Shown here: piece after piece, positions 9,501 to 57,713 of the stretch
Layout of the letters: every line of letters begins with the position of its first letter
How positions within the stretch are numbered: the stretch's first letter is position 1
Source of the DNA: Pecten maximus
Lineage: Eukaryota
DNA length: 64,000 bases
Direction: 5' to 3'
Assembly: GCF_902652985.1 (NCBI RefSeq)
Contig: NC_047023.1
Location: 23,622,001 to 23,686,000 of the forward strand
Translations under genes and position numbers: made by a program
Notes under the pieces: model-generated
The model's input: the letters and a program-made list of their open reading frames with translations, nothing else
Database searches by the model: none
What the model was told of the DNA's origin: nothing

Positions 9501-12500
9501 CTCCTAGAGTGTATTGTGTAGTCACTGTAAAGTCAGCAGGCTCCAGGTAACGGCCCAGTCTATCCCAGGGTGTATTGTGTAGTCACTGTAAAGTGAACAT
9601 GCTCCAGGTAACGGCCCAGTCTCTCCTAGAGTGTATTGTGTAGTCACTGTAAAGTCAGCATGCTCCAGGTAACGGCCCAGTCTCTCCTAGAGTGTATTGT
9701 GTAGTCACTGTAAAGTCAACATGCTCCAGGTAACGGCCCAGTCTCTCCTAGAGTGTATTGTGTAGTCACTGTAAAGTCAGCATGTTCCAGGTAACGGCCC
9801 AGTCTCTCCCAGGGTGTATTGTGTAGTCACTGTAAAGTCAGCATGCTCCAGGTAACGGCCCAGTCTCTCCTAGAGTGTATTGTGTAGTCACTGTAAAGTC
9901 AACATGTTCCAGGTAACGGCCCAGTCTCTCCTAGAGTGTATTGTGTAGTCACTGTAAAGTCAACATGCTCCAGGTAACGGCCCAGTCTCTCCTAGAGTGT
10001 ATTGTGTAGTCACTGTAAAGTCAGCAGGCTCCAGGTAACGGCCCAGTCTCTCCTAGAGTGTATTGTGTAGTCACTGTAAAGTCAACATGTTCCAGGTAAC
10101 GGCCCAGTCTCTCCTAGAGTGTATTGTGTAGTCAGTGTAAAGTCAACATGTTCCAGGTAACGGCCCAGTCTCTCCTAGAGTGTATTGTGTAGTCACTGTA
10201 AAGTCAGCATGCTCCAGGTAACGGCCCAGTCTCTCCTAGGGTGTATTGTGTAGCAACCTGCATATGGACCTTTTTTTTGCGGTTTCTCCTGAATATTTAA
10301 CAAAATGTCAGAAATCTTACTCGACGAGGTCACAGGGGCGTGTCACAGACCAAGCCCATCTGTATACGTGTTTCTGTATTATAAGGCGGCCTATGCAATT
10401 AAAATATATGGCATGTCATAACCATGCTTCTAAGACATATTAATTAGATAGATTTTAATGACATATCTTTGAGTAATCACCGTTAGTCAGGGATTAGTGA
10501 ATAGAAAGTTATTTTCGATACAGTACTTGTTATATTGGAACCTCGAGAGAAATCGGTTATTTTACAACTCATGTTCCGGACTCATATACTCAAAACATAT
10601 TAAAATCAATTTGATATGTATTCCTGTTTCGATAATCCGATAATATTGTTTTTGTCTTTTAGATATCGGATCGTATCCGGAATTGCATACAGTACATGCT
10701 AGTAAGACGGATGGCAGATTGTATTGGCAAGGCATACACATTTTTACAGTCTGTACATGTATATAGATTTCAAAATGCTCAGTAAGTATATATCAGCCCC
10801 CCTCCCCTCTCAGTCCCTTTTGACAAACTACATGTATTTCATTATCGAGATATTAGTTAGCGCGCATGTTCGAATTTGTACATGTTTATGTATTTCGAAT
10901 TAATACAAGATATTCATATGGCATTGTATCTCCAACAGCGTGTTCAACAATAGACATCTTCCCGTAATACATACCATGTGTAGGATGAGGACAGGTGCCG
11001 TCGCGGACGAATTGATTCAACAAGCATCCAAGACTTATACCTTCCCAAATACAAAGGTAAGTTACAGGGGCGCCAAGTCAACTTAAAACTTCTGTAAGCA
11101 GTCATCCATAAAATTTGTTTTGCGACGACATAGAAATGAATATAAACGAGTTGTCTTTCTATCTTAAATATGTCTCAAAAGCGGAAGGTCAAATGTCAAG
11201 GTCACAATGTCAGTTAATTAAGTTGATGAATGCTAAAAGTCCGTTTGTTATATATATTTACAATTAAATTGGATAACGGCGATTGACAATTAATTATTTA
11301 AGTAATTAGTAATGATTTAACCTAATTTAGATAAAATATCAATGTGCAACATATGTAATGATGTCAAACGTACAACCTAGGCAAGGTCAGTGGACAAGAT
11401 TAAAAGTCAAGGTCGAACCTCACCGAGATAGAGTGCAATGTTATTATCAAACATAAAATAATCTGAAATGGAGGAATTGAGTTTCACAAGCTTGATGTTT
11501 TTTTGGAGAGTAAAGTTCTGGTTTAAGTAGTATTGTGTAATATTCCAAACATCTCAGTGACGTGTTTACTGTTCTAGGAGTACCCTGTTTACATGAGAGA
11601 AACACCAAAACTTCCTGCAGTTCACATTGATGAAAAAATTGGGAGGGGTTGTACTCATCCGAACTCTAAAACAGGTAGGTTAAATACGTTAACATCGAAC
11701 TGGTATGCTGACTGATTTGGCATGGCGCACTGTCACATTGGCGCCCAACGCAATAGGTCGACCATGCGCCATACAAAGAGCGACAATGCGCCCATGTGAA
11801 AAATGTACCCCGCCAAAGCGCCATATTTATCATCAATTGTTGCATGTTTGTCGCATGGCGCACTGACACTCTTGATTGTAACAGTGTGACCTGGCCAAAA
11901 TCATCCACCATATGATTGGACTCTTTGCGAAATAGCAAACTATGGGAAAATAATGCTAATAACACTAATCAGTGTGTGGCTGAGTCAGTCCAGGGTCAGG
12001 GTTCATAGAACACGACTCTAAAACAAATATCTTGTAGTGTAGGTGTGTTTTCTGAGATTATTCATTGGTTCTGTTCTTAAGAACAAACAAATTTCCTTTT
12101 CATTTTACATAGTTGTCGGAACCCTTCGTTTATCTGGCAATCTGAATGGCTACCACCTGAAGATATCCGGGCGAACTGATGCCTCCTCTGTAATTCCAGG
12201 ATTCTTCCACTTAAATAAAGGTAAAGAAATGAAAATATTAACGTCCGATTCTCAACATGCACATGGTAGTTCTCTATACATGAAGTAATTTACGTCTGAA
12301 TCCCATCTTTCTTTATTTTCTTGATTCCCCAAACGCTGCCATTACACAAAAATGTACGTATCACCGCTCTACTTAACTATCATGCTGTAAGTCTAGAACG
12401 CGACCACTAAAAGAACGTAATGGTAAATTAAGTATCAATCGATGTTTAATGTTGATTGTTGTTCTATTAGCATTAATTTTGAATCGAGTAACAATTTTGT

Positions 12501-13526: not shown

Positions 13527-13965
13527 TTTTTCTCTTACCCTGAACAGGGATATCCGCAGTTTTACCGGGTTGAGATTTTCTTATCTCACCCTAGGGAAAA
13601 GACAGGCTACACGTGCTCTTCTCACGTTCTCAACAAATTGTATTTCGTCACGTCAACGATACCATGACGTCACGGCAACAATACAATGACGTCACGTCGA
13701 CAATTCAATCACACCAGGTCAACATTTCCTTGCATTGATGTAACGTCAATATTAGATATATAACTTAGAGGGTAAACAGGGTAAGAGAAAAACATTCACA
13801 TCATTCACCCCCATGGAAGTGAGACAGGGGGATCTCAACCCTCGGGGTAAGATAATTAAGCTGCCAAACACTCGGCAAGCCTCGTAGGCCTCGTGTTTGG
13901 CAACTTAAGAATCTTCCCCTTGGGTTGAGATTTCCCTGTCTCACCCCCACGTGGATGAAATATTG
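13527..13965. mobile_element. non-autonomous element with internal inverted repeat and long terminal hairpin (Crypton-like architecture)
   Basis: ttttctcttaccctg (about 13527-13542) is inverted with cagggtaagagaaaa (13777-13792). An imperfect palindrome follows at about 13800-13959, centred on ctcggcaagcctcg. Confidence 0.6.
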
Positions 13966-16153: not shown

Positions 16154-19100
16154 ATGGGAAAGGAAAAGAAAAAGAAGAAAGAAAGACATCGTGATCGACA
16201 TGCACACGGTTCTGGTAAACGGAAGAGGTACTATTTTGTTCCGTGTAACATTACGAGTTAATCTATTGTAATGTCGGGTTATCATATGACTTTCAGCACT
16301 ACGTTCTGTTTTAGTCTAGTCGACTGACGGTAGGCTACTAAAATATATTAACGCACTTGAGATTTTCTATCGATGGACGATTGAATCAGACACTTAAGCT
16401 AATATATATGCTGACTTACATGTCATAATGTCGGCATTTAAGGGCTAATGCACGTCCGGTCCATCTTGGAATTTTGACATGTCAATATTAATGAAAAATA
16501 GCGAATATAAGCAACAATAGTATTTCTACGAATTCGCTAACCTAGTGTGCAGGCTACTGTTTTGGAAAGATATAGAGCAATGGAGGGTATTATCGTCAGG
16601 TTAAGTATGACTGCTTCATTACCAGTGAATACTGTTCATAAAAATAAAATAACTGTTGTAGGTTAAGTTTAGGCTAGTGTTGTGTTTACCTGAGTCTGAC
16701 TTGTTGAGCGTTTATCACTTATACGAGGGAACATACTTTATTTGTATTTCCGGCCGAACAGAGGCCAGTTATCGTCAGGTGGAGGCAGTTATCGACGTCA
16801 CCGTCAATATTTTCATGCGTTTTGAAATGTTTCTTGTTATAAACACAAAAAATATGTCTACGTTTAAAGAACATGCATTGATCAACAAAAAAATGCATTT
16901 AAACCGTTGCATCCGTGCAAATATCATTGTCGGAAATGTTTTGGGTTTCTGCATGTGCTGCCCGAGCTTTCAAGCACTTTGCAACAGTGAACATTACATT
17001 CAGCATTGATGTTACGTCTGATAATACAATATTACGATATCAATAAATATCAGATGAAACTTGGAAGACACAGATCAAATACTGATCTTTTAAAATTAAA
17101 TCTTAAATTTAGAACAAACAATTGGGTCTTCTTAAAGACTAGGTTATTTATTTTGATTATGCAAAACTGACAATAACTGCCTCCAGTGTACCAAATTGTG
17201 GCAATTATCATCAGGCCGATTTACGGCATCGAAGAAGCCCGGATGTACATACAACGCGGGTCAACTTAGCAGACGCGGCGGAACTTCACATATATCAAAA
17301 ACATTCCAATGTTTGCTTTCGCGATTTGGATATTGAAAGGAGAAAGATGATGCACTTACCTTATTAAGTGACGTAAGAACATCAGAAAATTATGACGTGA
17401 AGATTATTAAAATATCTAAACTTAAATATTATCTGTTTGGAAACTTTGTCTGAATGAAAATAAGGCCAGAAACGTTCTAAAAAATTACTGTATTTGTTCA
17501 ATGAAAACTACAGCAATTTGACTTCAACATTTAATGAAATATTCAAAACTTTTGTAAAAACTGATGATAACTACAGCCTGACGATAATACCCTCCATTGC
17601 TCTACATGAAAAGCATCATTTAGGGCGAAAAAAGGGAAAAATAATTTTAAAAATCCAAGTTGTTACCATTAGTTAAAGTTAAAAAATGCACAAACATGAC
17701 TTTTTCAAAGGCACAATTCCTGAAAATAACATGAGCATCATATGTAACTTTACAGGAATGCACATACAATTACTCCTATTTCACAAAATATTCTAGTAAA
17801 TTTTGGTGGTATCTTATATAATTATCCAAAATACAAAAATGTAGTGTAAAAATAGATTTGGTGCTGGTGACCACTTCAAGTGTAAACTATAGGACCTGGA
17901 TTGTGGATTTCTTAAGGGTCAAATCAAAACCTTTGTGAAGGAGGGAGTAGTGTAAAAGTAGAAAGTATAAGGTCCCCTTACTAGCTCAGGCTAGTGGGAA
18001 TATTTCCCTTTAGCCAGTGTATCCATGCCATTTTTAATTTTCAGAAATATTAAAAATGACAGGGATACTGAAAAATGTGAAATACTTGGACAAGTTTAAT
18101 GGGAAAATCTATGGCAAATGGAATTTGACACCTCTATATGTACTACATGTACTTTCCTTATCATCTATCAAAGAAAAAGAACACCAATATTCACACATAC
18201 ACTCCTCATAACCAACAACTTGTAAACATCTCTCACAGCAAATACTAGAATTAACACTGTACATGAAAACTTAGACTGAGGGGAACGCATAAATTCAACC
18301 ACAGCAAAAGCAAATAGGACACTAGGTTTCTCTGACATAATATGAAGTCATTGTACATACTCGTCATACTGTTACACCACATTGGTATGACCACAGTTAG
18401 AGAAGCATCACCTGCATGAGATCCACACAAACAAGCACACAAAGACCAGCTTGAAACAATCCAACGCAAATCAGCTCGCTACATCTTCAACAATTACACA
18501 AACAGATCTCCAGGCACTTTTAACAACATGTTAAAGTCATTGCACTTGGATTCTCTAGAAAACAGACACACAATAGCTCGTCTAACACTCTTGTACAAAA
18601 TAAAACCCTCCCATGTGTCTATTCCCACAGAACATATTTTAACACAATCTGACAGAAGAACACAAGGATCACATAAATTTGAACAAATACAAACACGTAC
18701 AGACCTCTTTAAATACATGTACTTTCCACCAGCATCATTGACTAGAATTATCTCTGAACTGACATAGCCGCTACCAACACTCTATCTTCTTTCCAAAGCA
18801 GACTAGTTAAACATGTTCGCCAGCCTCTATAGTTAAGAAAAGTCTATCCTCTTCTTTTTAAATTGTACCAGCTGACTATTTTATATATAAGAAAAAATTC
18901 CCCCAAAAATATAAACTTTTCTGCAAATGTGCCCAGGAGAGATGTTATACAGACTTTCCTAAGAGTCTATTCCTTAAACGGAAGAAGAAGCCTAGTGGTA
19001 CTGATGTTTGCCTTGCTAATGAAGGGTCGCTTGTTTGAGCCCCAGTGTGGGTATTCTTCGAATTCATTACTCCTTCCTTTATATTACAATAGTAGTTTAG

Positions 19101-22100
19101 GTGATTATGCTTTGTGTGAACTACCTAGCCTGTCACATGTACATTGTGTAATGTGTGTGCTGAAAGACAGTACTACCTGTCATTAGCTTTAGGTAGCTAC
19201 CGTAGGTACATAAGTGCACATGTTAGAGGTAGTTCTCACAAATATCACAAAGCATGGTCACCTCAAATACTATACTGAGTTTAGTGAAGCCATATATACC
19301 CCTTATCATGTAATTTTTATTTTGTGTGTTGCAGGAGGGATGATTCAGACTCGTCAGATGAAGATTCACCATCAGATTCATCTGATGATTCTAGGTCACG
19401 ATCCAGGTCACCCAGATACAGGGAAAGGTCGAGGTCACCACGGCACCAGAGACGGTCAAGGTCACCAAAATATCGCAGTAGGAAATACTCTTCAGATTCT
19501 GATTCCTCGTCTGATAAACGCTCATCATCGTCAAAGTCAAAGAAAAAATATGAAAAAAAATCTTCAAAGAGTTCAAAGAAAAAGGAGAGAGATGCAGCAG
19601 AAATAGAGGAGGAAAAGAGGTATTCTCAAGAATCTATCAAATAGCTCCACAGTATAAATTTGTCACATCTTTATGAAAACTTGAATACTGTATAAAATAC
19701 AGGATATTAACCTGATATTATTCAACTAGGAATTGGTCAACAAAATATTAACAATTTACATTTAGTAGTAAATTTTCTTTAGTGTCTTATCTATCACAGT
19801 TGTTAACTAGATGTATAAGAATAAAAATACTATAGTTGTTCCAAAATTATTTGCGACTCTATGACCATAGTCAAAGATGTCAGATCATATGGGAAAAGTT
19901 GGGAAAAGCCATATCTTCATGAATCACCTAGTAGAGGTGAAACAGTACACTTTCAGCACGGTTCGGTACATATTGCTGTTATAGTGTTGACCGTTCAGTT
20001 TATTTTAAGATATATAAACCAAAATACAAATAGATGAATAGCTGATGTGGAATATATGTAAAACTAATTCGGCAAGTAGCTGCTGTTGCATCCTTTATCG
20101 GAAACCAAAATGTTTCTATACAGAAGATTGATAGTAAGCTGGGGAATCTCTTAGCACTAGTGCCATTTTCCCTGTAAAAAACATCTCTTAAATGTAAGGC
20201 CTCTTCTGATTGGGACTCATCAGATTTCCTTGACCAATCAAAAATCAGCTTTTACATAATATCGTCGGTCAACCTACCGCCGGCGCATAGTGAAATAGGC
20301 ACCCATATAAAAATGTACCACTCGCATTGCATACCATTATTTGCCGTTGCTATACTGTCTACCTAACCAAAAGAAAAGTATTGCAGTTCAGTTACACCGC
20401 GGTAAACTGTTTCACCCCTATCACCTAGTCTGTAAGTCCCCGGCTATCAAAACTATTGAGCAAATAAAAAATGTTACTAAATCTACAATGCAAGTACCTC
20501 ATTGAGTCTTTTTTCTACTTGAAACTCTAGGTCATAGTTTATGATATAATAGATATGGTTTTCAAGGTTCTAGAAACCATAAAAGAAAAAAATATACTGG
20601 CTTTATGTTACTGACTTTTCTTGTTGTAGACAACAGAAGGAATTGATAAAGGCTCTAGAAACTCCAGAGGAGAAACGAGCTCGGAGACTGGGTAAAAAAG
20701 AGGCTAAGGAGAGAAGACGGAAGGAAAAAATGGGCTGGGACAAAGATTACCTGGTAAAATAAATGTCCTGTGTGGTCAGTTTGTACAGTAGACTCATCAT
20801 TGATCTCTGTCCTGTGTGGTCAGTTTGTACAGTAGACTCACCATTGATCTCTGTCCTGTGTGGTCACCTTGTCAGTTTGTACAGTAGACTCATCATTGAT
20901 CTCTGTCCTGTGTGGTCAGTTTGTACAGTAGACTCACCATTGATCTCTGTCCTGTGTGGTCAGTTTGTATACTGTAAACGTACTTATTTTAGCGGTAATC
21001 ATATTTTAGCGCTTTTCGCGCTAGCATTAGTGCGCGAATTTATGTGCAGCGCTAATATATGTGCAGTGCTAAATTTTGTATCTAGTAAGTGTGCATACAT
21101 TACGTGAAATAACTAGCTATGTTTTGCTAGTAATCCAATACGATCTATCTCCCGTGGTGTGAACCAGTTATTTGACATCAAACACAACGTACAATGCTTA
21201 TCAATCGATGTTTATTTTATTCACAAAAACACAAAATGATAAATACAACACTACGCAAACACTGTCTCTGTTAACAGTTCATATGGCAGTAATTAGGGTA
21301 TAAGCCGCAAGGCTATAGGGCCTACAGTTCAGTCACGGATTTTATGAATAGCTCCCAGTATGCCGCTTTTGTCCCAACCACGCATGACTGCATCTTTCTT
21401 CACCGACTGAAAGGACGAAACCATCCAACCAGCATGGAGGGGTTTCAGGGTGGTAAGCTTGAGATCCACATTTACTGAATCGATCGGTCCACCAGTCTTG
21501 AGCAAACCATCCACACTGTCCGCGTACCAGTTTTGAAAACACGTTTTTACAGATCTTTTAAAGTCATTGTTTCCGGAAACGTCTAACGGTTGTAATTCCC
21601 CCGTACAAGATGCAGGGACATACCGAATACACGTTTTCTTTTTTGAGAACTTGGTGGAGTTTTAGTAATCTCATTGTTGGCTAATACAATATTTTCTGCA
21701 TCGGCCTGACAGTTTGCTAACCGTGGATCGGGTAACATCGACGACAGAGGTGGCGAATCCACAGCGGATATTAACCAACGTTTCAGCATGATAGATAGTT
21801 ATAAACTGACCAAACACACCAATACAACTAGTATACAATGTATCTATAGATTTATTCAGTAAAAACAACTCACAATTAAACTGTAGTCAGTGCGACCTGC
21901 CAGGCCCTATCGCTGACAATGTACAAATCTATTTTTAGTAACAGGGTGTTTTCCCAAAGTACAGTCGATTCCAGAAAAGCGTAGATGCGCTAATTCATGA
22001 TTGCGCGAATATGTCGCTGGTGGTGGTTTGCGCAAAAATATGAGTGCGCTAATATAAGTACGTTTACAGTAGTAGACTCACCATTGATCTCTGCCCTGTG

Positions 22101-28100: not shown

Positions 28101-31100
28101 GCTTATGTAGATTACGAGGCAGGGAAGTACTCGCCTAAACTCCTACGATTTAATGATCTGGAGATTGATACAGTTGTGTATGATCCTACTGACGACATGA
28201 AGAAACTGGAATTGGCCAGACAGCAAGTCAGAACACTGGGTCAAGTTAGGGTAGGTTCCTGTACTCATACTCCCAACACAGATCACAGGATCAAGTTAGG
28301 ATAGGTTCCAGTTCTCATACTCCAACACAGATCACAGGGTCAATTTAGGGTAGGTTCCTGTTCTCATACTCCAACACATGTCACAGGGTCAAGTTAGGGT
28401 AGGTTCCTGTACTCATACTCCAACACAGATCACAGGGTCAAGTTAGGGTAGGTTCCTGTTCTCATACTCCAACACAGATCACAGGGTCAAGTTAGGGTAG
28501 GTTCCTGTTGTCATACTCCAACACAGATCACTGGGTCAAGTTAGGGTAGGTTCCTGTTCTCATACTCCAACACAGAACACTGGGTCAAGTTAGGGTAGGT
28601 TCCTGTTCTCATACTCCAACACAGATCACAGGGTCAAGTTAGGGTAGGTTCCTGTACATATACTCCAACACAGATCACAGGGTCAAGTTAGGGTAGGTTC
28701 CTGTTCTCATACTCCAACACAGATCACAGGGTCAAGTTAGGGTAGGTTCCTGTTGTCATACTCCAACACAGATCACAGGGTCAAGTTAGGGTAGGTTCCT
28801 GTTCTCGTACTCCAACACAGATCACAGGGTCAAGTTAGGGTGGGTTCCTGTTGTCATACTCCAACACAGATCACTGGGTCAAGTTAGGGTAGGTTCCTGT
28901 TGTCGTACTCCAACACAGATCACTGGGTCAAGTTAGGGTAGGTTCCTGTTCTCGTACTCCAACACAGATCACAGGGTCAAGTTAGGATAGGTTCCTGTAC
29001 TCATACTCCAACACAGATCACAGGGTCAAGTTAGGGTAGGTTCCTGTTCTCGTACTTCAATACAGATTACAGGGTCAAGTTAGGGTAGGTTCCTGTTCTC
29101 ATACTCCAACACAGATCACAGGGTCAAGTTAGGGTAGGTTCCTGTACTCATACTCCAACACAGATCACAGGGTCAAGTTAGGGTAGGTTCCTGTTCTCAT
29201 ACTAAAACACAGAACACAGGGTCAAGTTAGGGTAGGTTCCTGTTCTCATACTAAAACACAGAACACAGGGTCAAGATAGGGTAGGTTCCTGTTCTCATAC
29301 TAAAACACAGAACACAGGGTCAAGTTAGGGTAGGTTCCTGTTCTCATACTAAAACACAGAACACAGGGTCAAGTTAGGGTAGGTTCCTGTTCTCATACTA
29401 AAACACAGAACACAGGGTCAAGATAGGGTAGGTTCCTGTTCTCATACTAAAACACAGAACACAGGGTCAAGTTAGGGTAGGTTCCTGTTCTCGTACTCCA
29501 ACACAGACCACAGGGTCAAGTTAGGGTAGGTTCCTGTTCTCGTACTCCAACACATGTCACAGGGTCAAGTTAGGGTAGGTTCCTGTACTCATACTCCAAC
29601 ACAGATCACAGGGTCAAGTTAGGGTAGGTTCCTGTACTCATACTCCAACACAGATCACAGGGTCAAGTTAGGATAGGTTCCTGTACTCATACTCCAACAC
29701 ATGTCACAGGGTCAAGTTAGGATAGGTTCCTGTTCTCATACTCCAACACATGTCACAGGGTCAAGGTTAGAGTAGGTTCCTGTTCTTGTACTCAAACATG
29801 GGTCAAGTTAGGGTAGGTTACTTTCCCATAAGACCATTCAAGGAAGTATACGAAAGCGGTTTTTATAGAAAAATATAAGGCATGACGCCAAAACAGATTG
29901 CTTTTTTTGGCGATATATAGAGATGGCCTTTATGGCAGGTTAAATCGTTCACTTGGGTAACTTATAGTTAGAGTAGTGATTATTTAGACAGTACAATACA
30001 GTGTAATAGTTTAAAATATAATAGTTTACAGTATTATAATAGTTTACAGTGTAATAGTTTACAGTGTACTAGTTACAGTGTAATAGTTTACAGTGTAATA
30101 GTTTACAGTGTAATAGTTTACAGTGTAATAGTTTACAGTGTAATAGTTAAGTGTAATAGTTTACAGTGTAATAGTTTACAGTGTAATAGTTTACAGTGTA
30201 ATAGTTAAGTGTAATAGTTTACAGTGTAATAGTTTACAGTGTAATAGTTTACAGTGTAATAGTTAACAGTGTAATAGTTTACAGTGTAATAGTTTACAGT
30301 GTAATAGTTAACAGTGTAATAGTTTACAGTGTAATAGTTTACAGTGTAGTAGTTAGAGTGTAATAGTTTAAAATATAATTGTTTACAGTATAATAGTTTA
30401 CAGTGTAATAGTTAACAGTGTAATAGTGGTGTAATAGTTTACAGTGTAATAGTTTAGTGTAATAGTTACAGTGTAATAGTTTATAGTGTTATAGTTAACA
30501 GTGTAATAGTTCAGTGTAATAGTGGTGTAATAGTTTACAGTGTAATCGTGGTGTAATAGTTTACAGTGTAATAGTTCAGTGTAATAGTTTACAGTGTAAT
30601 AGTTTACAGTGTTATAGTTAACAGTGTAATAGTTCAGTGTAATAGTGGTGTAATAGTTTACAGTGTAATAGTTTAGTGTAATAGTTACAGTGTAATAGTT
30701 TATAGTGTAATTATAGTTTTTAGTGTAATTACAGTTTACAGTGTAATCGTGGTGTAATAGTTTACAGTGTAATAGTTAACAGTGTAATAGTTAACAGTGT
30801 AATAGTTTACAGTGTAATAGTTTACAGTGTTATAGTTAACAGTGTAATAGTTCAGTGTAATAGTTTACAGTGTAATAGTTCAGTGTAATAGTTTACAGTG
30901 TATTAGTTTGTGTTAATCTATGTTGTGTACCTCAAGTTATAAACATATGGTATAACCGTGCTAACTGACCTACAAAATTTACCTATGAATCCCACTATTT
31001 CATGACTTTTGGGTCATAAGAATCACCTGCATTCTGATATGAACCGTAATCACCTGCATCTGTACTTGAAAATCTTATTTGAGGACTAAATGTCTTTAAC

Positions 31101-38700: not shown

Positions 38701-40875
38701 TGGTTATAAATTTAATTCAAATCTGCAACATATATGAAAATAACTCAATATTAAATATCTTTCTTATTAATAAAAAAATATTGAGATTCATTGAAAATTA
38801 ACCAAAATGTATGATCAATGTACATGTATTTAACTGCCCCTATTTACTCTACTTCTATCGATTACTTAATTTAATGCAATCACAAAACCCTGGAAATAAA
38901 TCTACACCAAACAGCAATGTTTGAGTGACATTCAACATACTTTTGGAGCATGAGATAGTGTGCGTATTCTGTAAACATAAGTCTATGAGATTATCATGCT
39001 TATATGATACTATTTAGGTAAGTAAGATCCAAATACCTTACAACTTTGATGGTCCAACAGCACAACCAATGCTTTGCGAGCAGCATACAGCACAAAAGGG
39101 TCAGCATCCGTCTGTATAAGGTCAACCTAGGAAGGGAAGATTTATACAAAGCTAGAAAACATTTAATCTCTAGGCATGTGGAAATTAACATTCCAGAGAG
39201 GGTAACTGGTCAAAGTAAAAAGACTACTTTGAACCTTGAAACTTTAGAATCTGAGTACAAGTGAAAAAAATAGTATCAGAACCTAGAGACAAGGCAGAAG
39301 ACCTGGGAACCAGTATACCTATGTTATTCAGAACCTAGAGACCAACAGACTTGAGTCTGGAGACCAGCACACCTGGGGATTGGAGCCTGGAGACCAGCAG
39401 ACCTGGGGATTGTGGAGCCTGGAGACCAACAGACCTAGTGATTTGAGTCTGGAGACCAGCACACCTGGGGATTGGAGTCTGGAGACCAACAGACCTGGGG
39501 ATTGGAGTCTGGAGACCAGTAGACCTGGGGATTGGAGACTGGAGACCAGCAGACCTGGAGATTGGAGTCTGGAGACCAGCAGACCTGGGAATTGGAGTCT
39601 GGAGACCAGCAGACCTGGGGATTGGAGTCTGGAGACCAGTAGACCTGGGGATTGGAGACTGGAGACCAGCAGACCTGGGGATTGGAGTCTGGAGACCAGT
39701 AGACCTGGGGATTGGAGACTGGAGACCAGCACACCTGGGGATTGGAGTCTGGAGACCAGCAGACCTGGGGATTTGAGTCTCGAGACCAGCTGACCTGGGA
39801 ATTGGAGTCTGGAGACCAGCAGACCTGGGGATTTGAGTCTTGAGACCAGCTGACCTGTGGATTCCATGGAGTCTGGAGACCAGCAGACCTGGGGATTGGA
39901 GCCTGGAGACCAACAGACCTGGTGATTGAAGTCTGGAGACCAGTAGACCTGGGGATTGGAGCCTGGAGACCAACAGACCTGGTGATTGGAGTCTGGAGAC
40001 CAGCACTCCTGTAGATTGGAGCCTGGAGACCAGCAGACCTGGGGATTTGAGTCTGGAGACCAGCAGACCTGGGGATTTGAGTCTGGAGACCAGCAGACCT
40101 GGGGATTTGAGTCTGGAGACCAGCAGACCTGGGGGTTGGAGTCTGGAGACCAGCAGACCTGGGGAATGGAGTCTGGAGACCAGTAGACCTGGGGATTGGA
40201 GACTGGAGACCAGCACACCTGGGAATTGGAGTCTGGAGACCAGCAGACCTGGGGATTGGAGTCTGGAGACCAGCAGACCTGGTGATTGGAGTCTGGAGAC
40301 CAGCAGACCTGGAGATTGGAGTCTGGAGACCAGTAGACGATGATTGCAAATTTGCTTTATTCATTTTCCTGGAACCCTCTACCAGGGTGCTGCCCTGGAC
40401 CCGCTAGTAGACCCTCCCCCAAAAAAACTGCTCGCGCCTATGGTGCTCGCATTATCACTACTCCTCCCCCCTTTCGAAAATCTTGGATCCACACCTGTAA
40501 AGAGACCAGCAGACATGGGGATCAGAACCTAGAGACTAGTAGACATGAAGATTGGAGACCAGCAGACCTGGGCATGAAAAATCTATCAATATACATAATA
40601 ATTAAATATGTTAATTATAATTACTGTCATAAGCTTAAGCAAATCATACTGAATTACAATATATTTACCACCAAATATAACAGCGTTGCAGAACTTTCTG
40701 ACGTATTCTCTAAATTAGAAGGTTCTTTACTCCGGAACCATTTATAACAAGTTGTCAGGCACTCGAGTTTGAAACTTGTCCGAGCTTCTTTGGTCTCGTC
40801 CGCATTTTTAACAGATATACTGGACAGACATTTACACAAATCTGTGACATCATTTAGTGTCGAATGTTTCAACAT
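35763..40875 (-). CDS. LINS1: protein Lines homolog (LINS1), about 724 aa, 5 coding exons
   Basis: Minus-strand exons 40875-40669, 39126-39037, 38630-37985, 37401-37209 and 36801-35763 join in frame (2175 nt). Lines_N motifs FGDQDDTLMEALL and NPHRQFYMLLQMTGFDHSVLVDLLTSPETCALLYLTRYLK and the Lines_C motif TMATLIRLRLKMESLCEGGLLMYHPGPLVRLLTQCEALYEQ* are present. The start codon is less certain. Confidence 0.9.
37504..37625. repeat. about 120-bp imperfect palindrome (hairpin element remnant) in a lines intron
   Basis: aaggtttctgatgttttattgaccttttaaaaatc pairs with gatttgtaaaaggccgattaaacatcagaaacctt. Confidence 0.65.
39328..40338. repeat. 30-bp GC-rich minisatellite, about 33 copies, in lines intron 1
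   Basis: Unit ggagaccagcagacctggggattggagtct, with degenerate copies at about 39277-39310 and 40500-40572. Confidence 0.95.
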
Positions 40876-46065: not shown

Positions 46066-46105
46066 ATGGATCTTAACAAAGGATGACAGATGTGAGATAG
46101 ATGAT

Positions 46106-47065
46106 ACAATGACTGCTCCCTAACTCTATTTACAATGTACTGATACTAGGACTGTTGTGGAGCTTGTTACAATGACTGCTCCCTTAATCTATTTACAATG
46201 AACTGATACTAGGACTGGTGTGGAGCTTGTTACAATGACAGCTCCCTAAATCTATTTACAATGAACTGATACAAGGACTGGTGTGGAGCGTGTTACAATG
46301 ACAGCTCCCTAAATCTATTTACAATGTACTGATACTAGGACTGGTGTGGAGCTTGTTGCAATGACAGCTCCCTAAATATATTTACAGTGTACTGATACTA
46401 GGACTGGTGTGGAGCTTGTTACAATGACAGCTCCCTAAATCTATTTACATTGTACTGATACTAGGACTGGTGTGGAGCTTGTTACAATGACAGCTCCCTA
46501 AATCTATTTATAGTGTACTGATACTAGGACTGGTGTGGAGCTTGTTACAATGACAGCTCCCTAAATCTATTTACATTGTACTGATACTAGGACTGGTGTG
46601 GAGGTTGTTACAATGACAGCCTCCTAAATCTATTTATAGTGTACTGATACTAGGACTGGTGTGGAGCTTGTTACAATGACAGCTCCCTAAATCTATTTAC
46701 AGTGTACTGATACTAGGACTGGTGTGGAGCTTGTTACAATGACCGCTCCCTAAATCTATTTACAATGAACTGATACTAGGACTGGTGTGGAGCTTGTTAC
46801 AATGACAGCTCCCTAAATCTATTTACAGTGTACTAATACTAGGACTGATGTGGAGCTTGTTACAATGACAGCTCCCTAAATCTATTTACAGTGTACTGAT
46901 ACTAGGACTGGTGTGGAGCTTGTTACAATGACAGCTCCCTAAATCTATTTACAGTGTACTGATACTAGGACTGGTGTGGAGCTTGTTACAATGACAGCTC
47001 CCTAAATCTATTTACAGTGTACTGATACTAGGACTGGTGTGGAACTTGTTACAGTAACTGCTCCT
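46106..47065. repeat. 63-bp minisatellite, about 15 copies, just downstream of the TRMT1 stop
   Basis: Unit acaatgacagctccctaaatctatttacagtgtactgatactaggactggtgtggagcttgtt with period 63. Confidence 0.95.
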
Positions 47066-47439
47066 AGTGGTGTTCCGTTTTATCTTATTAAACGATGACG
47101 AGTCATTTTACCACTTACTATGAATAATTGATCATTATTTTCTGTGATCTATCATGACTATAACATGGAAACTTTCAGAAGTTGTTGAGATTGATAATGC
47201 ACTTGAAAATTGATTAAATGAACAAAAAAATATTGATCAATTTCTATCAAAATGTATCAAAGCAAAATTTTAAGACAGCTTAATACCATAAAACTATCCA
47301 CCATGTTTTCCTCATTTTGGTGAATGTCGCTATTTCCTGTTTTCTTCATGTTTTATCAATAATCAATCATCAATAATCAATCATCAATAATATGGAAATT
47401 GTGATGAAATCATGACTTTATCAGAGATTCTAACATTAA

Positions 47440-49795
47440 TGGCTCCTCTAAACAGATGACCAAGTGTGACTGGTGAGGGGTTTGTTACAGTGACAGCTCC
47501 CCTAGACAGATAATCACCATGTGTGACTGGTGAGAGGTTTGTTACGGTGACAGCTCCCCTAGACAGATCATCACCATATGTGACTGGTGAGGGGTTTGTT
47601 ATAGTGACAGCTCCCCTAGACAGATCATCACCATGTGTGACTGGTGAGGGGTTTGTTACAGTGACAGCTCCCCTAGACAGATCATCACCATATGTGACTG
47701 GTGAGGGGTTTGTTACGGTGACAGCTCCCCTAGACAGATGACCAAGTGTGACTGGTGAGGGGTTTGTTACGGTGACAGCTCCCCTACACAGACCATCACC
47801 ATATGTGACTTGTGAGGGGTTTGTTACGGTGACAGCTCCCCTAGACAGATCATCACCATGTGTGACTGGTGAGGGGTTTGTTACAGTGACAGCTCCCCTA
47901 GACAGATCATCACCATGTGTGACTGGTGAGGGGTTTGTTACAGTGACAGATCCCCTAGACAGATCATCACCATGTGTGACTGGTGAGGGGTTTGTTACAG
48001 TGACAGCTCCCCTAGACAGATCATCACCATGTGTGACTGGTGAGGGGTTTGTTACGGTGACAGCTCCCCTAGACAGATCATCACCATGTGTGACTGGTGA
48101 GGGGTTTGTTACGGTGACAGCTCCCCTAGACAGACCATCACCATGTGTGACTGGTGAGGGGTTTGTTACAGTGACAGCTCCCCTAGACAGATCATCACCA
48201 TGTGTGACTGGTGAGGGGTTTGTTACAGTGACAGATCCCCTAGACAGATCATCACCAAGTGTGACTAGTGTGGGGTTTGTTACAGTGACAGCTCCCCTAG
48301 ACAGATCATCACCATGTGTGACTGGTGAGGGGTTTGTTACAGTGACAGCTCCCCTAGACAGATCATCACCATGTGTGACTGGTGAGGGGTTTGTTACAGT
48401 GACAGCTCCCCTAGACAGATCATCACCATATGTGACTGGTGAGGGGTTTGTTACGGTGACAGCTCCCCTAGACAGATCATCACCATATGTGACTGGTGAG
48501 GGGTTTGTTACAGTGACAGCTCCCCTAGACAGATCATCACCATGTGTGACTGGTGAGGGGTTTGTTACGGTGACAGCTCCCCTAGACAGATCATCACCAA
48601 GTGTGACTGGTGAGGGGTTTGTTACAGTGACAGCTCCCCTAGACAGACCATCACCAAGTGTGACTGGTGAGGGGTTTGTTACAGTGACAGCTCCCCTAGA
48701 CAGATCATCACCATGTGTGACTGGTGAGGGGTTTGTTACGGTGACAGATCCCCTAGAAAGATCATCACCATGTGTGACTGGTGAGGGGTTTGTTACAGTG
48801 ACAGCTCCCCTAGACAGATCATCACCATGTGTGACTGGTGAGGGGTTTGTTACAGTGACAGCTCCCCTAGACAGACCATCACCATGTGTGACTGGTGAGG
48901 GGTTTGTTACAGTGACAGCTCCCCTAGACAGACCATCACCAAGTGTGACTGGTGAGGGGTTTGTTACGGTGACAGCTCCCCTAGACAGATCATCACCATG
49001 TGTGACTGGTGAGGGGTTTGTTACAGTGACAGCTCCCCTAGACAGATCATCACCATGTGTGACTGGTGAGGGGTTTGTTACAGTGACAGCTCCCCTAGAC
49101 AGATCATCACCATGTGTGACTGGTGAGGGGTTTGTTACAGTGACAGCTCCCCTAGACAGATGACCATGTGTGACTGGTGAGGGGTTTGTTACAGTAACAG
49201 CTCCCCTAGACAGATCATCACCATGTGTGACTGGTGAGGTGTTTGTTATAGTGACAGCTCCCCTAGACAGACCATCACCATGTGTGACTGGTGAGGGGTT
49301 TGTTACAGTGACAGATCCCCTAGACAGACCATCACCATGTGTGACTGGTGAGGGGTTTGTTACAGTAACAGCTCCCCTAGACAGATCATCACCATATGTG
49401 ACTGGTGAGGGGTTTGTTACAGTGACAGCTCCCCTAGACAGACCATCACCAAGTGTGACTGGTGAGGTGTTTGTTATAGTGACAGCTCCCCTAGACAGAT
49501 CATCACCATGTGTGACTGGTGAGGTGTTTGTTATAGTGACAGCTCCCCTAGACAGATCATCACCATGTGTGACTGGTGAGGTGTTTGTTATAGTGACAGC
49601 TACTCTAGATCTTAACTTTGACTGGTGAGGGGTTTATAAGTCTCCCCTAGACAGATCATCACCATGTGTGACTGGTGAGGGTGACTGGTGAGGGGTTTGT
49701 TACAGTAACAGCTCCCCTAGACAGATCATCACCATATGTGACTGGTGAGGGGTTTATAAGTCTCCCCTAGACATACCTGCATCACAAATTGTGAC
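47440..49795. repeat. 57-bp minisatellite, about 40 copies (with 54-bp variants)
   Basis: Unit gtgtgactggtgaggggtttgttacagtgacagctcccctagacagatcatcaccat, which yields the repetitive TGEGFVTVTAPLDRSSPCV ORFs. Confidence 0.95.
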
Positions 49796-51726: not shown

Positions 51727-54160
51727 TTGTGATTGTTAGTCAGTAGCATGCTTGCATGGAGCGCTATCAAATTTGCTCAGATCAATGACCTTGAAGTTTG
51801 TATCATCTTATTATTTTTAAACAACTTATTTACTACATTAGACACTTGGTCAGTGTCATTTATTTCAATTAATTTAATTGTCCTAAATCCCAGTACTCAT
51901 AACTTTATGGGATATGAGCAAGATGTTGCGTCTGGTGCGAGTTCAAAATTACCTTTCCAGGAAGTGAGCCTCAATTATTTGTGCTTCATGCCAGCAGGAA
52001 TTTTGTTAGTATCGGGGGCACTTGGCGTAAATATAATTATCTTCTATGTACTTATAATGTATTTCTAAACAGTTTATATATAAAATTGTAGTATAGTTTC
52101 ACCCATCCTCATAATTTTGAATCATTTCCATTAAAATCAAGCTTTCCTACATAAACCTTAGTAAATTTAAGCACCACTCCAGGGAGAAACATAAAACATA
52201 GAGGCCATGATTTTTTTTTGATAAATCACCTTCAGCCCTTTCCATCCATGTAGAGTATTTAATTCTACTAAATCTGGGCCTTAAAGAAAAAATCCAGTCG
52301 ATTTGACCCAAACATGTAATCGATCTGATGATCATTTTGTCCGCTTTACCTATATTTCTCTTTGTTTTCTCTTCACTTTCATTCTTTAACCGATCATTTG
52401 ATTACTATGACCTTGAACTTTGATGGACAAGGTCAACTATTTGCACAATTATTGCAGCCAGCAACTCGTGCTCAACATGCGATGATTATCAAGTGTATAT
52501 GTGTCATACTAATGAAAGAAAATATTTGAATTGAAATTTTTGGATAATTTTGAATTTTGGCTGGAAAACAAAAGTGCCATATCTGCGTCATTTTTGATGA
52601 TTTGACCTTGAAATGTTGCAAACACCTTCATCGGGGCAGGCTCTTTAAAATGTGACCCAAATAATTTACTGTGACCTTGAATGAAGGCCGTCATGGTCAA
52701 CAAAAAGCATAACATTTGTAGCCAGCAATACATGCTATCGATATGTCACACATCAAGCTTTCATGTGTATAGTTAAAGGAGCAGAAACCTTTTTATCTGC
52801 AATTATGGATGATTTTTGAATTTTTGGCGGGAAAAACTTTTTTTTTCAAAGTGCCATACTAGTAACTAAAATTCTCTGTTATTGTTTATCTGACGATCAT
52901 ACAACTTACATATTCTGTTTCATATGCGATATTATTGACCTACTTTTGACCCTATAGCAAGGCCTTGGCCTTGACACATTCTCTAATAACATGTCATTGA
53001 CCAAATTCTAACCGATTTCCAATGAAAACTTAACAAAGTATGCTACAATATGTTGAGTTCCTTTATAAACTATAGTAAAAGTGTTACTCAAGGTTCATGG
53101 AATTTACAATTTTGATAAAGAACCTTCCATCCATGAATAGTATATCATTCTGCCATATATCTGGGTTTTAAGAAGATTTTTGAAGGTCAATTTGACTCAT
53201 TTTAGCCACACCTCTCAGGGGTAGGGACCATATACACCGTGGAGAAGGTTAACGGACTTATATATATACTTTACAATTTCGGCAGACATTTAGCTAAGGA
53301 AGGTTTCAGGAAAATTTCATCAAAAAAAGTTGAGGAATTTTTTTAGAAGTTGAAATGTGAAATGTGGAAATGTTAACTAAGCCTAACGACGGACGACGAC
53401 TTACGAAGCCGTATTGAAAAAGGTCATTAAAGCACTTCTGTTCTTTAAAAAGTGGGACGAAATGGTTGGGGAGGGAGCCTGATCCTTACCACACATAATC
53501 CAAATCGATTGCGTGTGAAACCCCCTAACAGTTATGCCGTACATTACTGTACAGTAGGCTACTACTAACAGTAGACTGCAGTTTGGCGCCCTAAAACATT
53601 TGACCACTGGGTTCGACATATCCTATTTTTGACATTAAGCCTAATGAAACATATGTATGTATAACTCGCCCGACTACGATGGCCGATAGCGGCCGTACAT
53701 ATAATACACCTAGTTATACATAAATATGTACTAAATGACAAGTTTCATTAGGTACATTTAAAACTTTCAAAAATAAAATATGTACAGAATGAAAAATGTA
53801 CAGAATGAATTATGTACAAATAATACTTTCAAAAAGAAAATATGTACAAAATTGATTATGTACATAAAACAATCCTGAAAGAATGCATGGAATGCTCCGG
53901 AGTATGGTCGGCCATCGTAGATAACACGATTTAAGCGCTGGTTTCTCAACTGAGTGTTGTCTTACACTTATAAAAGTTGAAAATCCACTGGAAGTAAGTT
54001 GATATGGGATTTGACGAAGCATACAATTCCAATGAAAAAAATATCAAGCGATCAACACAGCTTGTCATTTGTTGCTACATTGAGTGAAATGTAGCAATGT
54101 CCATCCGCAAGAAGAGTGACGCGATTAAATAAACAGATGTGTTTCGATATCACCATTTTT

Positions 54161-54563
54161 TTACATTCTATTTAATTGTAAAACAATAGAGTTTTTTACA
54201 AGGGTTTCATCTCGTATAAGTTTATCTTGCATTAAATAATGTAACAACCCAAATGGAATACACGATTGTATGGCAAATTCACACCAGGTCTTTTCAACTT
54301 CCAACTGGTTAACAAAGCTCAAAGCTTCATTGAAATGTAAATCCACAATATCGTCATCAGATAATATCACACAAGCATATCCTAGCTGATTAGCTTGACC
54401 ATCTTTACGTCCTAGACATATGAAAAGCGCAGTTATCTTAGCTTTAATGATATACGCATAGGAAAGGCGCAACACATTTTTAAATATTCTCCAATAAGCT
54501 TTTTCTTCAATACGTTCGATAAAATACTCCTGTTGTTTTTTCTTTAATCAACTCTGTATCCAT
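54161..54563 (-). pseudogene. decayed intronless small ORF with a degenerate Cx2C...Q..H.C-like motif (Polinton/virus accessory-gene-like)
   Basis: MDTELIKEK/QQEYFIERIEEKAYWRIFKNVLRLSYAYIIKAKITALFICLGRKDGQANQLGYACVILSDDDIVDLHFNEAL..., with one frameshift near the start. The family resemblance is from memory and is unverified. Confidence 0.4.
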
Positions 54564-54809
54564 TATGAATATACTTCAGCACCAATGTGTTCGTTGAATA
54601 CGAATAACGATATAATATAGTCTGTGTAGATTGAGTTGTCTTCTGTCCAAAGTTTTCCAAAAATTTAAGAGATGTCCACCTCTTTTGAAAGACTGCTATA
54701 CCTTTCCTCTATCAATGATTGAATGTCTCATGCATGAACGTTGTAGTGTTAACATTTTGTGGAAGTGTAGCGTCTATCTAAATTATAAAAATCTACACCT
54801 CTCGTTTAA

Positions 54810-55217
54810 TCAACACAAAGATAGTTTTTCGACCATTTTTCTCCATTGCGATGATATCTAGATAGTCCCATGATTTAAGAATCACTCCACACATAAAACA
54901 CTGAACTTGGTCACTAATTCCATTGTTAAAAAACCGTCACGTCCAAGGTCATATGGAGTATGTCGTATATGACGTGACCATTCTTTAAAAGTGTTCAAAC
55001 GGCTGACAACTTGAAGCATAGAGGGATGTTTAGGAGTGAAAGTTTTTTTAACAAGTCTCCAGATATAGGCACAGTCTACTTACCTTCTCTGATTGACAGA
55101 CGTAGTTGACTTTTAACTTTCTTTATGATGACTTGTTCTGTAATATCCAACCGACAGACAATTTGACTTGTGTAAAATCTCTTTACTTGTTACGAAATCT
55201 ATTTGAGCTTGAGCCAT
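54810..55217 (-). pseudogene. inhibitor-of-apoptosis BIR-domain gene remnant
   Basis: The minus-strand translation across two frameshifts reads PKHPSMLQVVSRLNTFKEWSRHIRHTPYDLGRDGF/NNGISDQVQCFMCGVILKSWDYLDIIAME/KWSKNYL. This matches the BIR consensus RL.TF..W...P..LA..GF.Y.G..D.V.CF.C...L..W...D....EH.KW...C. The His and the last Cys ligand are lost. Confidence 0.8.
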
Positions 55218-55880
55218 AATATTTAATTTTTTGATAGGTGTCCTTATTTTATAGCGTACTAAAAGTGATCCTGATTTCGTATCAGCATGAGGTCATTTAA
55301 ATATAGAACTGGTGAAATACATAGGTAGACTACAAAGCTTTAAGGTCAGGATTTCTCAAATCCTCACAAGATCCTCATAAAATCCTCAGATCCTCACTAG
55401 GATCCTCATGGATCGTTATCGATCCTCACTTAATCCTCAGATTCTCATTGATCCTCGCTTCTATTTTACATCAACTTTTATACATAATTCATTTTGTACA
55501 TTTTTCATTCTGTACATATTTTCTTTTTGAAAGTATTATTTGTACATAATTCATTCTGTACATTTTTTCATTCTGTACATATTTTCTTTTTAAAAGTATT
55601 ATTTGTACATAATTCATTCTGTACATAATTCATTCTGTACATTTTTCATTCTGTACATATTTTCTTTTTGAAAGTTTTAAATGTACCTAATGAAACTTGT
55701 CATTTAGCACATATGTATGTATAATTAGGTGTATTATATGTACGGCCGCTATCGGCCATCGTACCCGACCCATATATGTCATGTCAGAAACTTGTGGGTA
55801 TCAGTTGCGTTTCGTAATAAATACAAATATTCCGGTCTATATATTTTGCGGAATACCGATAGTAAACTTCCGCTTCCACG

Positions 55881-56063
55881 ATGGCAGAGATTCACAACAC
55901 TGTCAAACAACTAATCAATGATAATGGGAAAGATGAGTTTCTCACGGCATCAGAGATTCTCCTTAAGTTTGCCGATAACATCATCAACCATCCAAATGAT
56001 CCAAAGTATAGAAAAATACGACTTGCGAACCCTACAATCGAAAACAAATTATTGCCAGTGTGA
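55881..56063 (+). pseudogene. truncated duplicate of NGLY1 exon 1 (60-aa partial PUB domain, no splice donor)
   Basis: It appears identical to 57714-57894 for 181 nt, then runs into the duplication junction and stops (CCA GTG TGA). Confidence 0.85.
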
Positions 56064-57713
56064 AAATTTAAGCACCACTCCAGGGAGAAACATAAAACAT
56101 AGAGGCCATGATTTTTTTGATAAATCACCTTCAGCCCTTTCCATCCATGAAGAGTATTTAATTCTACTAAATCTGGGCCTTAAAGAAAAAATCCAGTCGA
56201 TTTGACCCAAAACATATGTAATAGATCTGATGATCATTTTTCCGCTTTACCTATATTTCTCTTTGTTTTCTTTTCACTTTCGTTCTTTAACCGATCATTT
56301 GATTACTATGACCTTGAACTTTGATGGACAAGGTCAACTATCTGCACAATTATTGCAGCCAGCAACTCGTGCTCAACATGCGATGATTATCAAGTGTATA
56401 TGTGTCATACTAATGAAAGAAAACATTTGAATTGCAATTTTTGGACAATTTTGTATTTTGGCTGAAAAAGTGCCATATCTGCGTCATTTTTGATGATTTG
56501 ACCTTGAAATGTTGCAAACACCTTCATCGGGGCAGGCTCTTTAAAATGTGACCCAAATAATTTACTGTGACCTTGAATGAAGGCCAACGTCAAGGTCAAC
56601 AAAAAGCATAACATTTGTAGCCAGCAATACATGCTATCGATATGTCACACATCAAGCTTTCATGTGTATAGTTAAAGGAGCAGAAACCTTTTTATCTGCA
56701 ATTTTGGATGATTTTTGAATTTTTGGCGGGAAAAACTTTTTTTCCCAAAAGTGCCATACTAGTAACTAAAATTCTCTAATTGTTTATCTGACGATCATAC
56801 AACTTCCATATTCTGTTTCATATGCGATATTATTGACCTACTTTTGACCCTATAGCAAGGCCTTGGCCTTGACACATTCTCTAATAACATGTCATTGAAA
56901 ATGGTTAGCCCTGGCCAAATTCTAACCGATTTCCAATGAAAACTTAAAGTATGCTACAATATGTTGAGTTCCTTTATAAACTATAGTAAAAGTGTTACTC
57001 AAGGGTCATGAAATTTACAATTTTGATAAAGAACCTTCCATCCATGAATAGTATATCATTCTGCCATATATCTGGGTCTTGAGAAGATTTTTGATGGTCA
57101 ATTTGACTCATTTTAGCCACACCTCTCAGGGGTAGGGACCATATATACACAGTGGAGAAGGTTAACGGACTTATATAATATTATATACTTTACAATTTCG
57201 ACAGACATTTAGCTAAGGAAGGTTTCAGGAAAATTTCATCAAAAAAAGTTGAGGAATTTTTTTACAAGTTGAAATGTGAAATGTGGAAATGTTAACTAAG
57301 CCTAACGACGGACGACGACTTACGAAGCCGTATTGAAAAAAAGGTCATTAAAGCACTTCTGTTCTTTAAAAAGTGGGACGAAATGGTTGGGGAGGGAGCC
57401 TGATCCTGACCACATAATCCAAATTGATTGCGTGTGAAACCCCGTAACAGTACTAGTTATGCCGTACATTACTGTACAGTAGGCTACTACTAACAGTAGA
57501 ATGCAGTTTGGCGCCCTAAAACATGTGACCACTGGGTTCGACATATCCTATTTTTGACATTAAGCCTAATGAAACATATGTATGTATAACTCGCCCGACC
57601 CATATATAGTGTCATGTCAGATACTTGTGGGTATCAGTTGCGTTTCGTAATAAATACAAATATTCCGGTCTATATATTTTGCGGAATACCGATAGTAAAC
57701 TTCCGCTTCCACG

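Follow-up and report, generated by a model that had tools for sequence, protein, structure and literature searches.

The window, the whole stretch of 64,000 nucleotides of the Pecten maximus genome considered here, contains a transposon of 2,089 bp (53675-55763) with inverted ends of the type TA..TA. The 6-mer flanking the element is identical at both sides and occurs a single time, between matching flanks, at an empty site. This confirms the boundaries that an earlier note on this DNA had drawn from a 6-bp target-site duplication and the empty site. A 12-bp terminus is present at both outer ends (53675 and 55763). A third terminus, ending at 53919, makes the left 245 bp a segment with a terminus on either side; the first ~193 bp of this arm make up the long inverted repeat, in which there are short tandem units rich in AT. 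Along 144 nt the two arms are 97% complementary, and no longer inverted repeat was found in the window. As the note had described, the right arm is inverted and truncated on its inner side, where ~50 bp are missing, and the duplication is found at the outermost ends only. Equally in line with the note, no transposase ORF was found inside the element, whose longest internal ORF measures 128 amino acids. The genes for pPolB, integrase and capsid are absent from it. The 24-bp end occurs 30 times genome-wide in comparison to 0 occurrences for the control.

Table 1 Features of the element and its surroundings, with positions counted from the first letter of the window.
Feature	Position	Strand	Remarks
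Left target-site duplication	53669..53674	+	6 bp
Left arm	53675..53919	+	245 bp between two 12-bp termini
Inner terminus	53908..53919	-	abuts Polinton BIR2-derived DNA
BIR2 remnant, N-terminal part	53952..54104	-	broken, cut off near inner terminus; 75-79% nucleotide identity to Polinton BIR2
Polinton accessory ORF remnant, CxxC-like motif	54128..54646	-	open stretch of 128 amino acids at 54161-54547
Polinton accessory orf2 remnant	54572..54799	-	3 stops
BIR1 remnant	54841..55052	-	two frames, split near 54930; similarity ends before last zinc ligands
Polinton accessory orf1 remnant	55019..55217	-	broken
Short tandem array	55355..55476	+	
Right arm	55477..55763	-	inverted copy of left arm, tandem units expanded, without inner terminus
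Right target-site duplication	55764..55769	+	6 bp
Truncated copy of PUB-domain first exon	55881..56061	+	117 bp downstream of element
Empty target site	57594..57599	+	second flank copy, upstream of untruncated PUB exon

In the 918 Mb genome, with 19 chromosome-sized contigs among those matched, the cargo between the arms gave at least 53 matches (40 of 44 candidates scored), which lie at ~25 places and some of which are assembly duplicates. We catalogued 14 copies with both outer ends. An exact 6-bp duplication flanks nine of them and none is present at the other five; two of the nine share their flanks and represent one insertion. Near-complete cargo was found in six of the duplication-bearing copies including the one in the window, and the other five each have a 6-bp duplication of their own. 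The element has transposed as a unit. The dispersed copies with different duplications that the note had suggested looking for do exist, and the cargo is not confined to this site without relatives flanked by terminal inverted repeats. Identity to the window copy ranges from 98.3% down to ~80% among full-length copies, and therefore the family has been transposing for a long time, with recent movement as well. All 14 two-ended copies have the inner terminus (with up to 3 mismatches), and the same junction adjoins it in 11 of the 14; the right arm is incomplete in every copy examined. In two other copies the internal tandem array has been enlarged to a length of about 1-3 kb, and the copy at C2:42.35M is itself palindromic. 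Two facing ends 18.4 kb apart on C7 were considered as one element and ruled out, as they show no duplication and enclose an unrelated interior.

The ~1.5-kb cargo had been described as including a frameshifted BIR domain, and this holds. The Pfam BIR model scores above cut-off on the minus-strand frame 54793-54936 (E=3.8e-6, 27.8 bits), with the two halves of the domain (BIR1) in different frames; the N-terminal half, in another frame, gives no BIR match in Pfam by itself. Beyond the first reading, the cargo holds a second BIR remnant (BIR2, 53952-54104) and three further ORF remnants. In 12 of the 12 copies examined BIR1 is split between frames, stop-bearing or truncated, and none has it unbroken with all zinc ligands. 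The longest open BIR1 frame was found in the C3 copy (Pfam E=8.8e-11), yet it lacks the last zinc ligands as well.

Weaker matches to the cargo occur without these termini nearby. Among the neighbours of such matches at C2:43.76-43.77M are an rve integrase (E=3.4e-8) and a Pox_A32 ATPase (E=2.9e-5); at the same locus, DNA_pol_B_2 falls just below cut-off (E=1.6e-5) and Peptidase_C5 is weak (E=0.059). Two further ORFs of this locus, which have no Pfam match, carry motifs by which we label them as putative major and minor capsid proteins. Using the natural ORFs of the locus as markers, 18 Polinton regions were mapped. In Polinton remnants the accessory block adjoins genes for integrase, putative capsid proteins, protease, ATPase and polymerase, and one subfamily shows the order orf1, BIR1, orf2, CxxC, BIR2, orfX, integrase, capsids, protease, ATPase, polymerase. 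The arrangement orf1-BIR1-orf2-CxxC-BIR2 recurs at C11:10.44M and, as far as detected, at C13:38k and C17:15.01M. With this block the five ORFs of the cargo are collinear at 33-65% amino-acid identity; a small Polinton ORF between CxxC and BIR2 was not detected in the cargo. The cargo is not a host IAP; it derives from, and is collinear with, the accessory block at the left end of Polintons/Mavericks resident in this genome. At the nucleotide level, cargo and Polinton remnants are only 57-79% identical by segment, and thus the direct donor Polinton is not among the remnants found.

The earlier note had viewed the element as carrying an IAP gene remnant and had proposed that such elements may mobilise anti-apoptotic genes, which can be read as capture of a host IAP gene and as a route by which functional anti-apoptotic genes of bivalves might be expanded. 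A BIR domain that passes the Pfam cut-off and moves in multiple copies would suit such a scenario, as would the enrichment of DNA transposons near clam IAPs that is described in the available text of PMC7831173. However, the four neighbouring ORFs in the cargo are of Polinton origin and keep the gene order of Polintons, and BIR1 is unbroken in none of the 12 copies. Moreover, when the four cargo BIR fragments were compared with 21 Polinton loci and 18 host-type loci, 19, 17, 19 and 20 of the Polinton loci outscored the best host-type locus. The placement in a tree proposed by the note (55 rows and 80 columns, with 33 short or redundant rows left out) succeeded for the cargo BIR2, which is nested among Polinton BIR2 with support 96/83, and failed for BIR1, which falls into a polytomy that also contains four host rows. 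Capture of a host IAP appears largely refuted by these comparisons and we regard it as very improbable; neither the captured host gene nor the route to IAP expansion was borne out. Because the cargo is a Polinton block with two broken BIR remnants, the element likely spreads dead viral-type genes and not host anti-apoptotic ones.

For the CxxC ORF, pN/pS pooled over 12 pairs of the window copy with another copy amounts to 0.6 and not 1, a value from which the 98%-identical copy is excluded and in which the pairs are non-independent and transition bias is uncorrected. On account of this value, the ORF may be under slight constraint. Polinton pairs are for the most part saturated or nearly saturated at synonymous sites, with dN ~0.3; two less divergent pairs gave 0.15/0.28 and 0.09/0.39. 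The pattern would fit relaxed selection following capture, without proving neutrality. A homologue search returned 38 relatives of the CxxC ORF; it matches no Pfam family, the leads from the Atlas all stay below 0.9, and no relative was present in viral contigs. For orf1, a PC4-like identity was considered but found no support in Pfam. The cargo is uncovered in one run presumed to be RNA.

As far as the available text of PMC10045372 goes, complete IS3EU families are defined by TA..TA ends and usually 6-bp duplications, and the same marks are given in that of PMC12730594. Variants of the end with a length of 13 bp occur 152 and 327 times in the genome versus 5 and 4 times for the controls. The terminus of the element has 479 exact genome matches, which mostly belong to sibling families, and sibling families have 6-bp duplications as well. 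The transposase family PF24764 gave at least 124 genome matches (150 of 256 candidates scored), and in the frames read the motif agrees with IS3EU sequences in the part of the PMC10045372 supplement that was compared. The ends of transposase-bearing elements start with TA and are identical to the 12-bp end of the element at 5, 6, 7 and 9 of 12 positions in four families; one putative transposase-bearing end reaches 10 of 12, the best among the PF24764 loci examined. The autonomous IS3EU with matching ends that the note had proposed to search for was not encountered; none of the PF24764 loci examined has an end identical to that of the element. By blastn the arm matches nothing in 72 stretches around PF24764 hits, and neither 31 10-kb stretches beside unpaired ends nor 20 paired ends contain an autonomous partner. 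Based on the TA ends, the 6-bp duplications, the sibling ends and the PF24764 elements with similar ends, the assignment to IS3EU is likely, in support of the superfamily named in the note. The element would accordingly be classed as a non-autonomous IS3EU-type transposon that is likely mobilised in trans by an IS3EU transposase.

The 12-bp end and a 6-bp duplication are also found in at least seven sibling families of non-autonomous elements. One of them was seen nested in another, two lie side by side, and two share an internal segment, possibly a coding remnant. In the sibling families compared by tblastx with the Polinton regions mapped, no Polinton ORFs were found. A young IS3EU family of ~10 kb (e.g., C1:57.159-57.169M) has more than 10 copies at ~99.6% identity, TA ends, a 6-bp duplication and an open transposase frame of 452 amino acids, and was probably active recently. 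As mobiliser of the element this family was rejected, its ends matching at just 5 of 12 positions.

AG..CT termini are a feature of Polintons, which also generate 6-bp duplications. An internally deleted Polinton, of which the cargo would be the normal interior, might account for the duplication, the long inverted repeats and the Polinton genes inside, and deleted palindromic Polintons do occur in this genome. The Polinton ends found here start with AG, however, and those of the element with TA. Beside the genes of the 18 Polinton regions the terminus of the element is found in none, with one distant match at 1 mismatch, and its many exact matches lead mostly to sibling families which, where compared, are without Polinton genes. 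A deleted Polinton is for these reasons a highly unlikely origin.

The best explanation, to which we assign a probability of roughly 85%, is a dispersed non-autonomous family with TA..TA ends and 6-bp duplications whose interior is a decayed Polinton left-end gene block, and in which the BIR remnants are likely dead passengers. Within this explanation, an origin by nesting has about an even chance. In a first step, an inserting Polinton would have truncated one such element within its arm, after which a second element of 245 bp would have landed in the BIR2 gene of the Polinton. A transposase would then have used the two outer ends, lifting out the Polinton left end between them, and the resulting unit would have amplified and subsequently decayed. 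Homology to Polinton BIR2 ends no more than about 30 bp short of the inner terminus. A precedent for nesting is found at C5:10309847-10315183, where an element of a sibling family harbours a palindromic insert of 3.4 kb that resembles a Polinton, has ends of the AG type and is flanked by a 6-bp duplication of its own. An ORF of this insert is presumably the N-terminus of a Polinton polymerase, although it has no Pfam match.

Alternatively, the family may have arisen as Pack-TIRs ordinarily do, through template switching or gap filling that brought the cargo into a single element, in which case the inner terminus would be a duplicated or nested end and the element never a composite. Among 12 inner-end matches in the genome (10 in this family and 2 unrelated) there is no solo 245-bp mini-element, and none of the copies examined has a complete right arm, both as expected for this route; gap-filling and FoSTeST account for animal Pack-TIRs in the available text of PMC8277862. 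It is less easily reconciled with the clean inner end, which with its own ~50-bp subterminal sequence lies directly at Polinton BIR2 DNA in 11 of 14 copies, or with the nested Polinton-like insert of the sibling element at C5:10.31M. We hold template switching to be possible, though with some reserve, and weigh nesting with use of the outer ends against it at about even odds. The same results bear on the note's description of a composite of two IS3EU-like MITEs with a complete 245-bp mini-element as the left arm. Two termini do bound the 245 bp, the duplication is outermost only and the unit moves, but the modules are neither complete, with the right arm truncated, nor found as independently mobile, with 0 solo copies among the 12 inner-end matches, although solo modules may have existed in the past; a composite origin is plausible. 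The tandem array next to the right arm might possibly represent the terminal repeat of the donor Polinton, but the resemblance is weak: when the junction of array and arm was compared with the Polinton terminus in three copies, 296, 37 and 1667 of 2000 shuffles were equally good, the third slice being probably mis-cut.

Genome-wide, 137 Pfam BIR matches were obtained, at least 36 of which lie within Polinton-type loci by coordinate matching; among the best 28, 21 lie within the 30 Polinton-BIR loci. The best 30 matches to a Polinton BIR all have an adjoining Polinton ORF, and 22 of the 30 are stop-free in the match. At host-type BIR loci a Polinton ORF neighbour was found in 0 of 18 cases, in stretches shorter than those at the Polinton loci. 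Homologue searches with two Polinton BIR proteins returned one match each. Many BIRs at Polinton loci are intronless open single-BIR ORFs of ~100-130 amino acids, and one subfamily has two BIR genes. A large number of the intronless BIR genes in this genome are thus provided by Polintons.

For the hard clam, the available text of PMC7831173 describes 42 intronless single-BIR genes in clade 1; the intronless clam IAPs are dispersed, mostly untranscribed and ascribed to retroposition. The same reading of dispersed intronless IAPs is adopted in the accessible parts of PMC8917759 and PMC13159474, and the words "Polinton" and "Maverick" are absent from the main text of all three papers. IAP homologues in adintoviruses are already recorded in the available text of PMC8502044; no mention of BIR, IAP or apoptosis was found in PMC10748475 and PMC11131425. 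We tentatively suggest that an IS3EU composite assembled itself round a Polinton end and amplified a two-IAP module, and that Polintons, and not retroposition, could be the source of the dispersed, intronless and mostly silent single-BIR IAPs of bivalves. For the intronless IAPs of the hard clam and other species, a Polinton source would, by analogy, be an alternative to retroposition. Should the same apply to clams and oysters, the "IAP expansion" would in part consist of viral gene content and the host counts would be inflated.

The element shares TA..TA termini, 6-bp duplications and long inverted repeats with IS3EU/GingerRoot elements as presented in the available text of PMC10045372, and fungal TET+ IS3EU elements also carry passenger genes from other transposon lineages (PMC12730594, available text). 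Unlike IS3EU/GingerRoot, it is non-autonomous, has broken Polinton passengers and an extra internal terminus, and no exact autonomous partner was found. Foreign DNA between TIR arms, multiple copies, varied duplications and a distant parent are common to it and to Pack-TIRs and Pack-MULEs (PMC8277862, available text), whereas here the parent is a virus-like mobile element instead of a host gene and five ORFs are present as one block. From Polintons/Mavericks (adintoviruses; PMC8502044, available text), the source of the cargo, the element differs by being without polymerase, integrase, capsid gene and AG termini. Composite transposons, i.e., bacterial Tn elements and, in the available text of PMC6431247, a Drosophila foldback TE, also show an outer-only duplication and an interior that moves as a unit, and Teratorn is likewise a TIR transposon joined with viral DNA. 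In contrast to these, one arm is truncated here, neither arm occurs alone, there is no transposase and the viral portion amounts to a dead fragment of 1.5 kb. The element is a multicopy Pack-TIR of IS3EU type with dead Polinton genes. Searches of the literature outside subscription papers and Repbase entries returned no account of Polinton genes captured by an IS3EU element. In this family, one mobile element has clearly packaged and spread the gene block of another, virus-like element, and the parental order can still be read.

Polintons themselves also occur in rearranged forms. At C11:36.635-36.646M, an 11-kb Polinton derivative with a 6-bp duplication has the left end at both sides, as an inverted repeat of 3.2 kb with 98% identity, and similar fold-back forms were seen at C17:11.45M and C13:27.26-27.28M.

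In the window, the element lies 117 bp upstream of the ATG of an exon with a PUB domain (Pfam), part of a gene that we take to be NGLY1. The segment 52163-57894 holds the promoter and the first exon of this gene twice in tandem, and identity of the two flank copies amounts to 98.0% and 99.7%. Contigs of three individuals bridge the empty site in all three cases, and the tandem-duplicate junction (56061|56064) was seen in none of them; loose contig ends at the duplicate junction continue into single-copy sequence. Contigs of one run hint at the occupied site, as they span its right junction, but the 27 letters that they have within the element are below threshold. Because the junction was unseen in the three individuals, the duplicate may be an allelic misassembly that includes the other haplotype. 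A misassembly of two alleles is likely, and the contigs inform on presence only. The insertion upstream of the PUB-domain gene is apparently polymorphic; apart from this, the element is probably of little functional weight. Elsewhere in the window, three pairs of short inverted repeats (16570-17607, 20970-22071 and 13804-13959) may be further small elements, and long minisatellite arrays with periods of 30-63 bp (9040-10253, 28229-29798, 39353-40338 and 46105-49681) are probably intronic.
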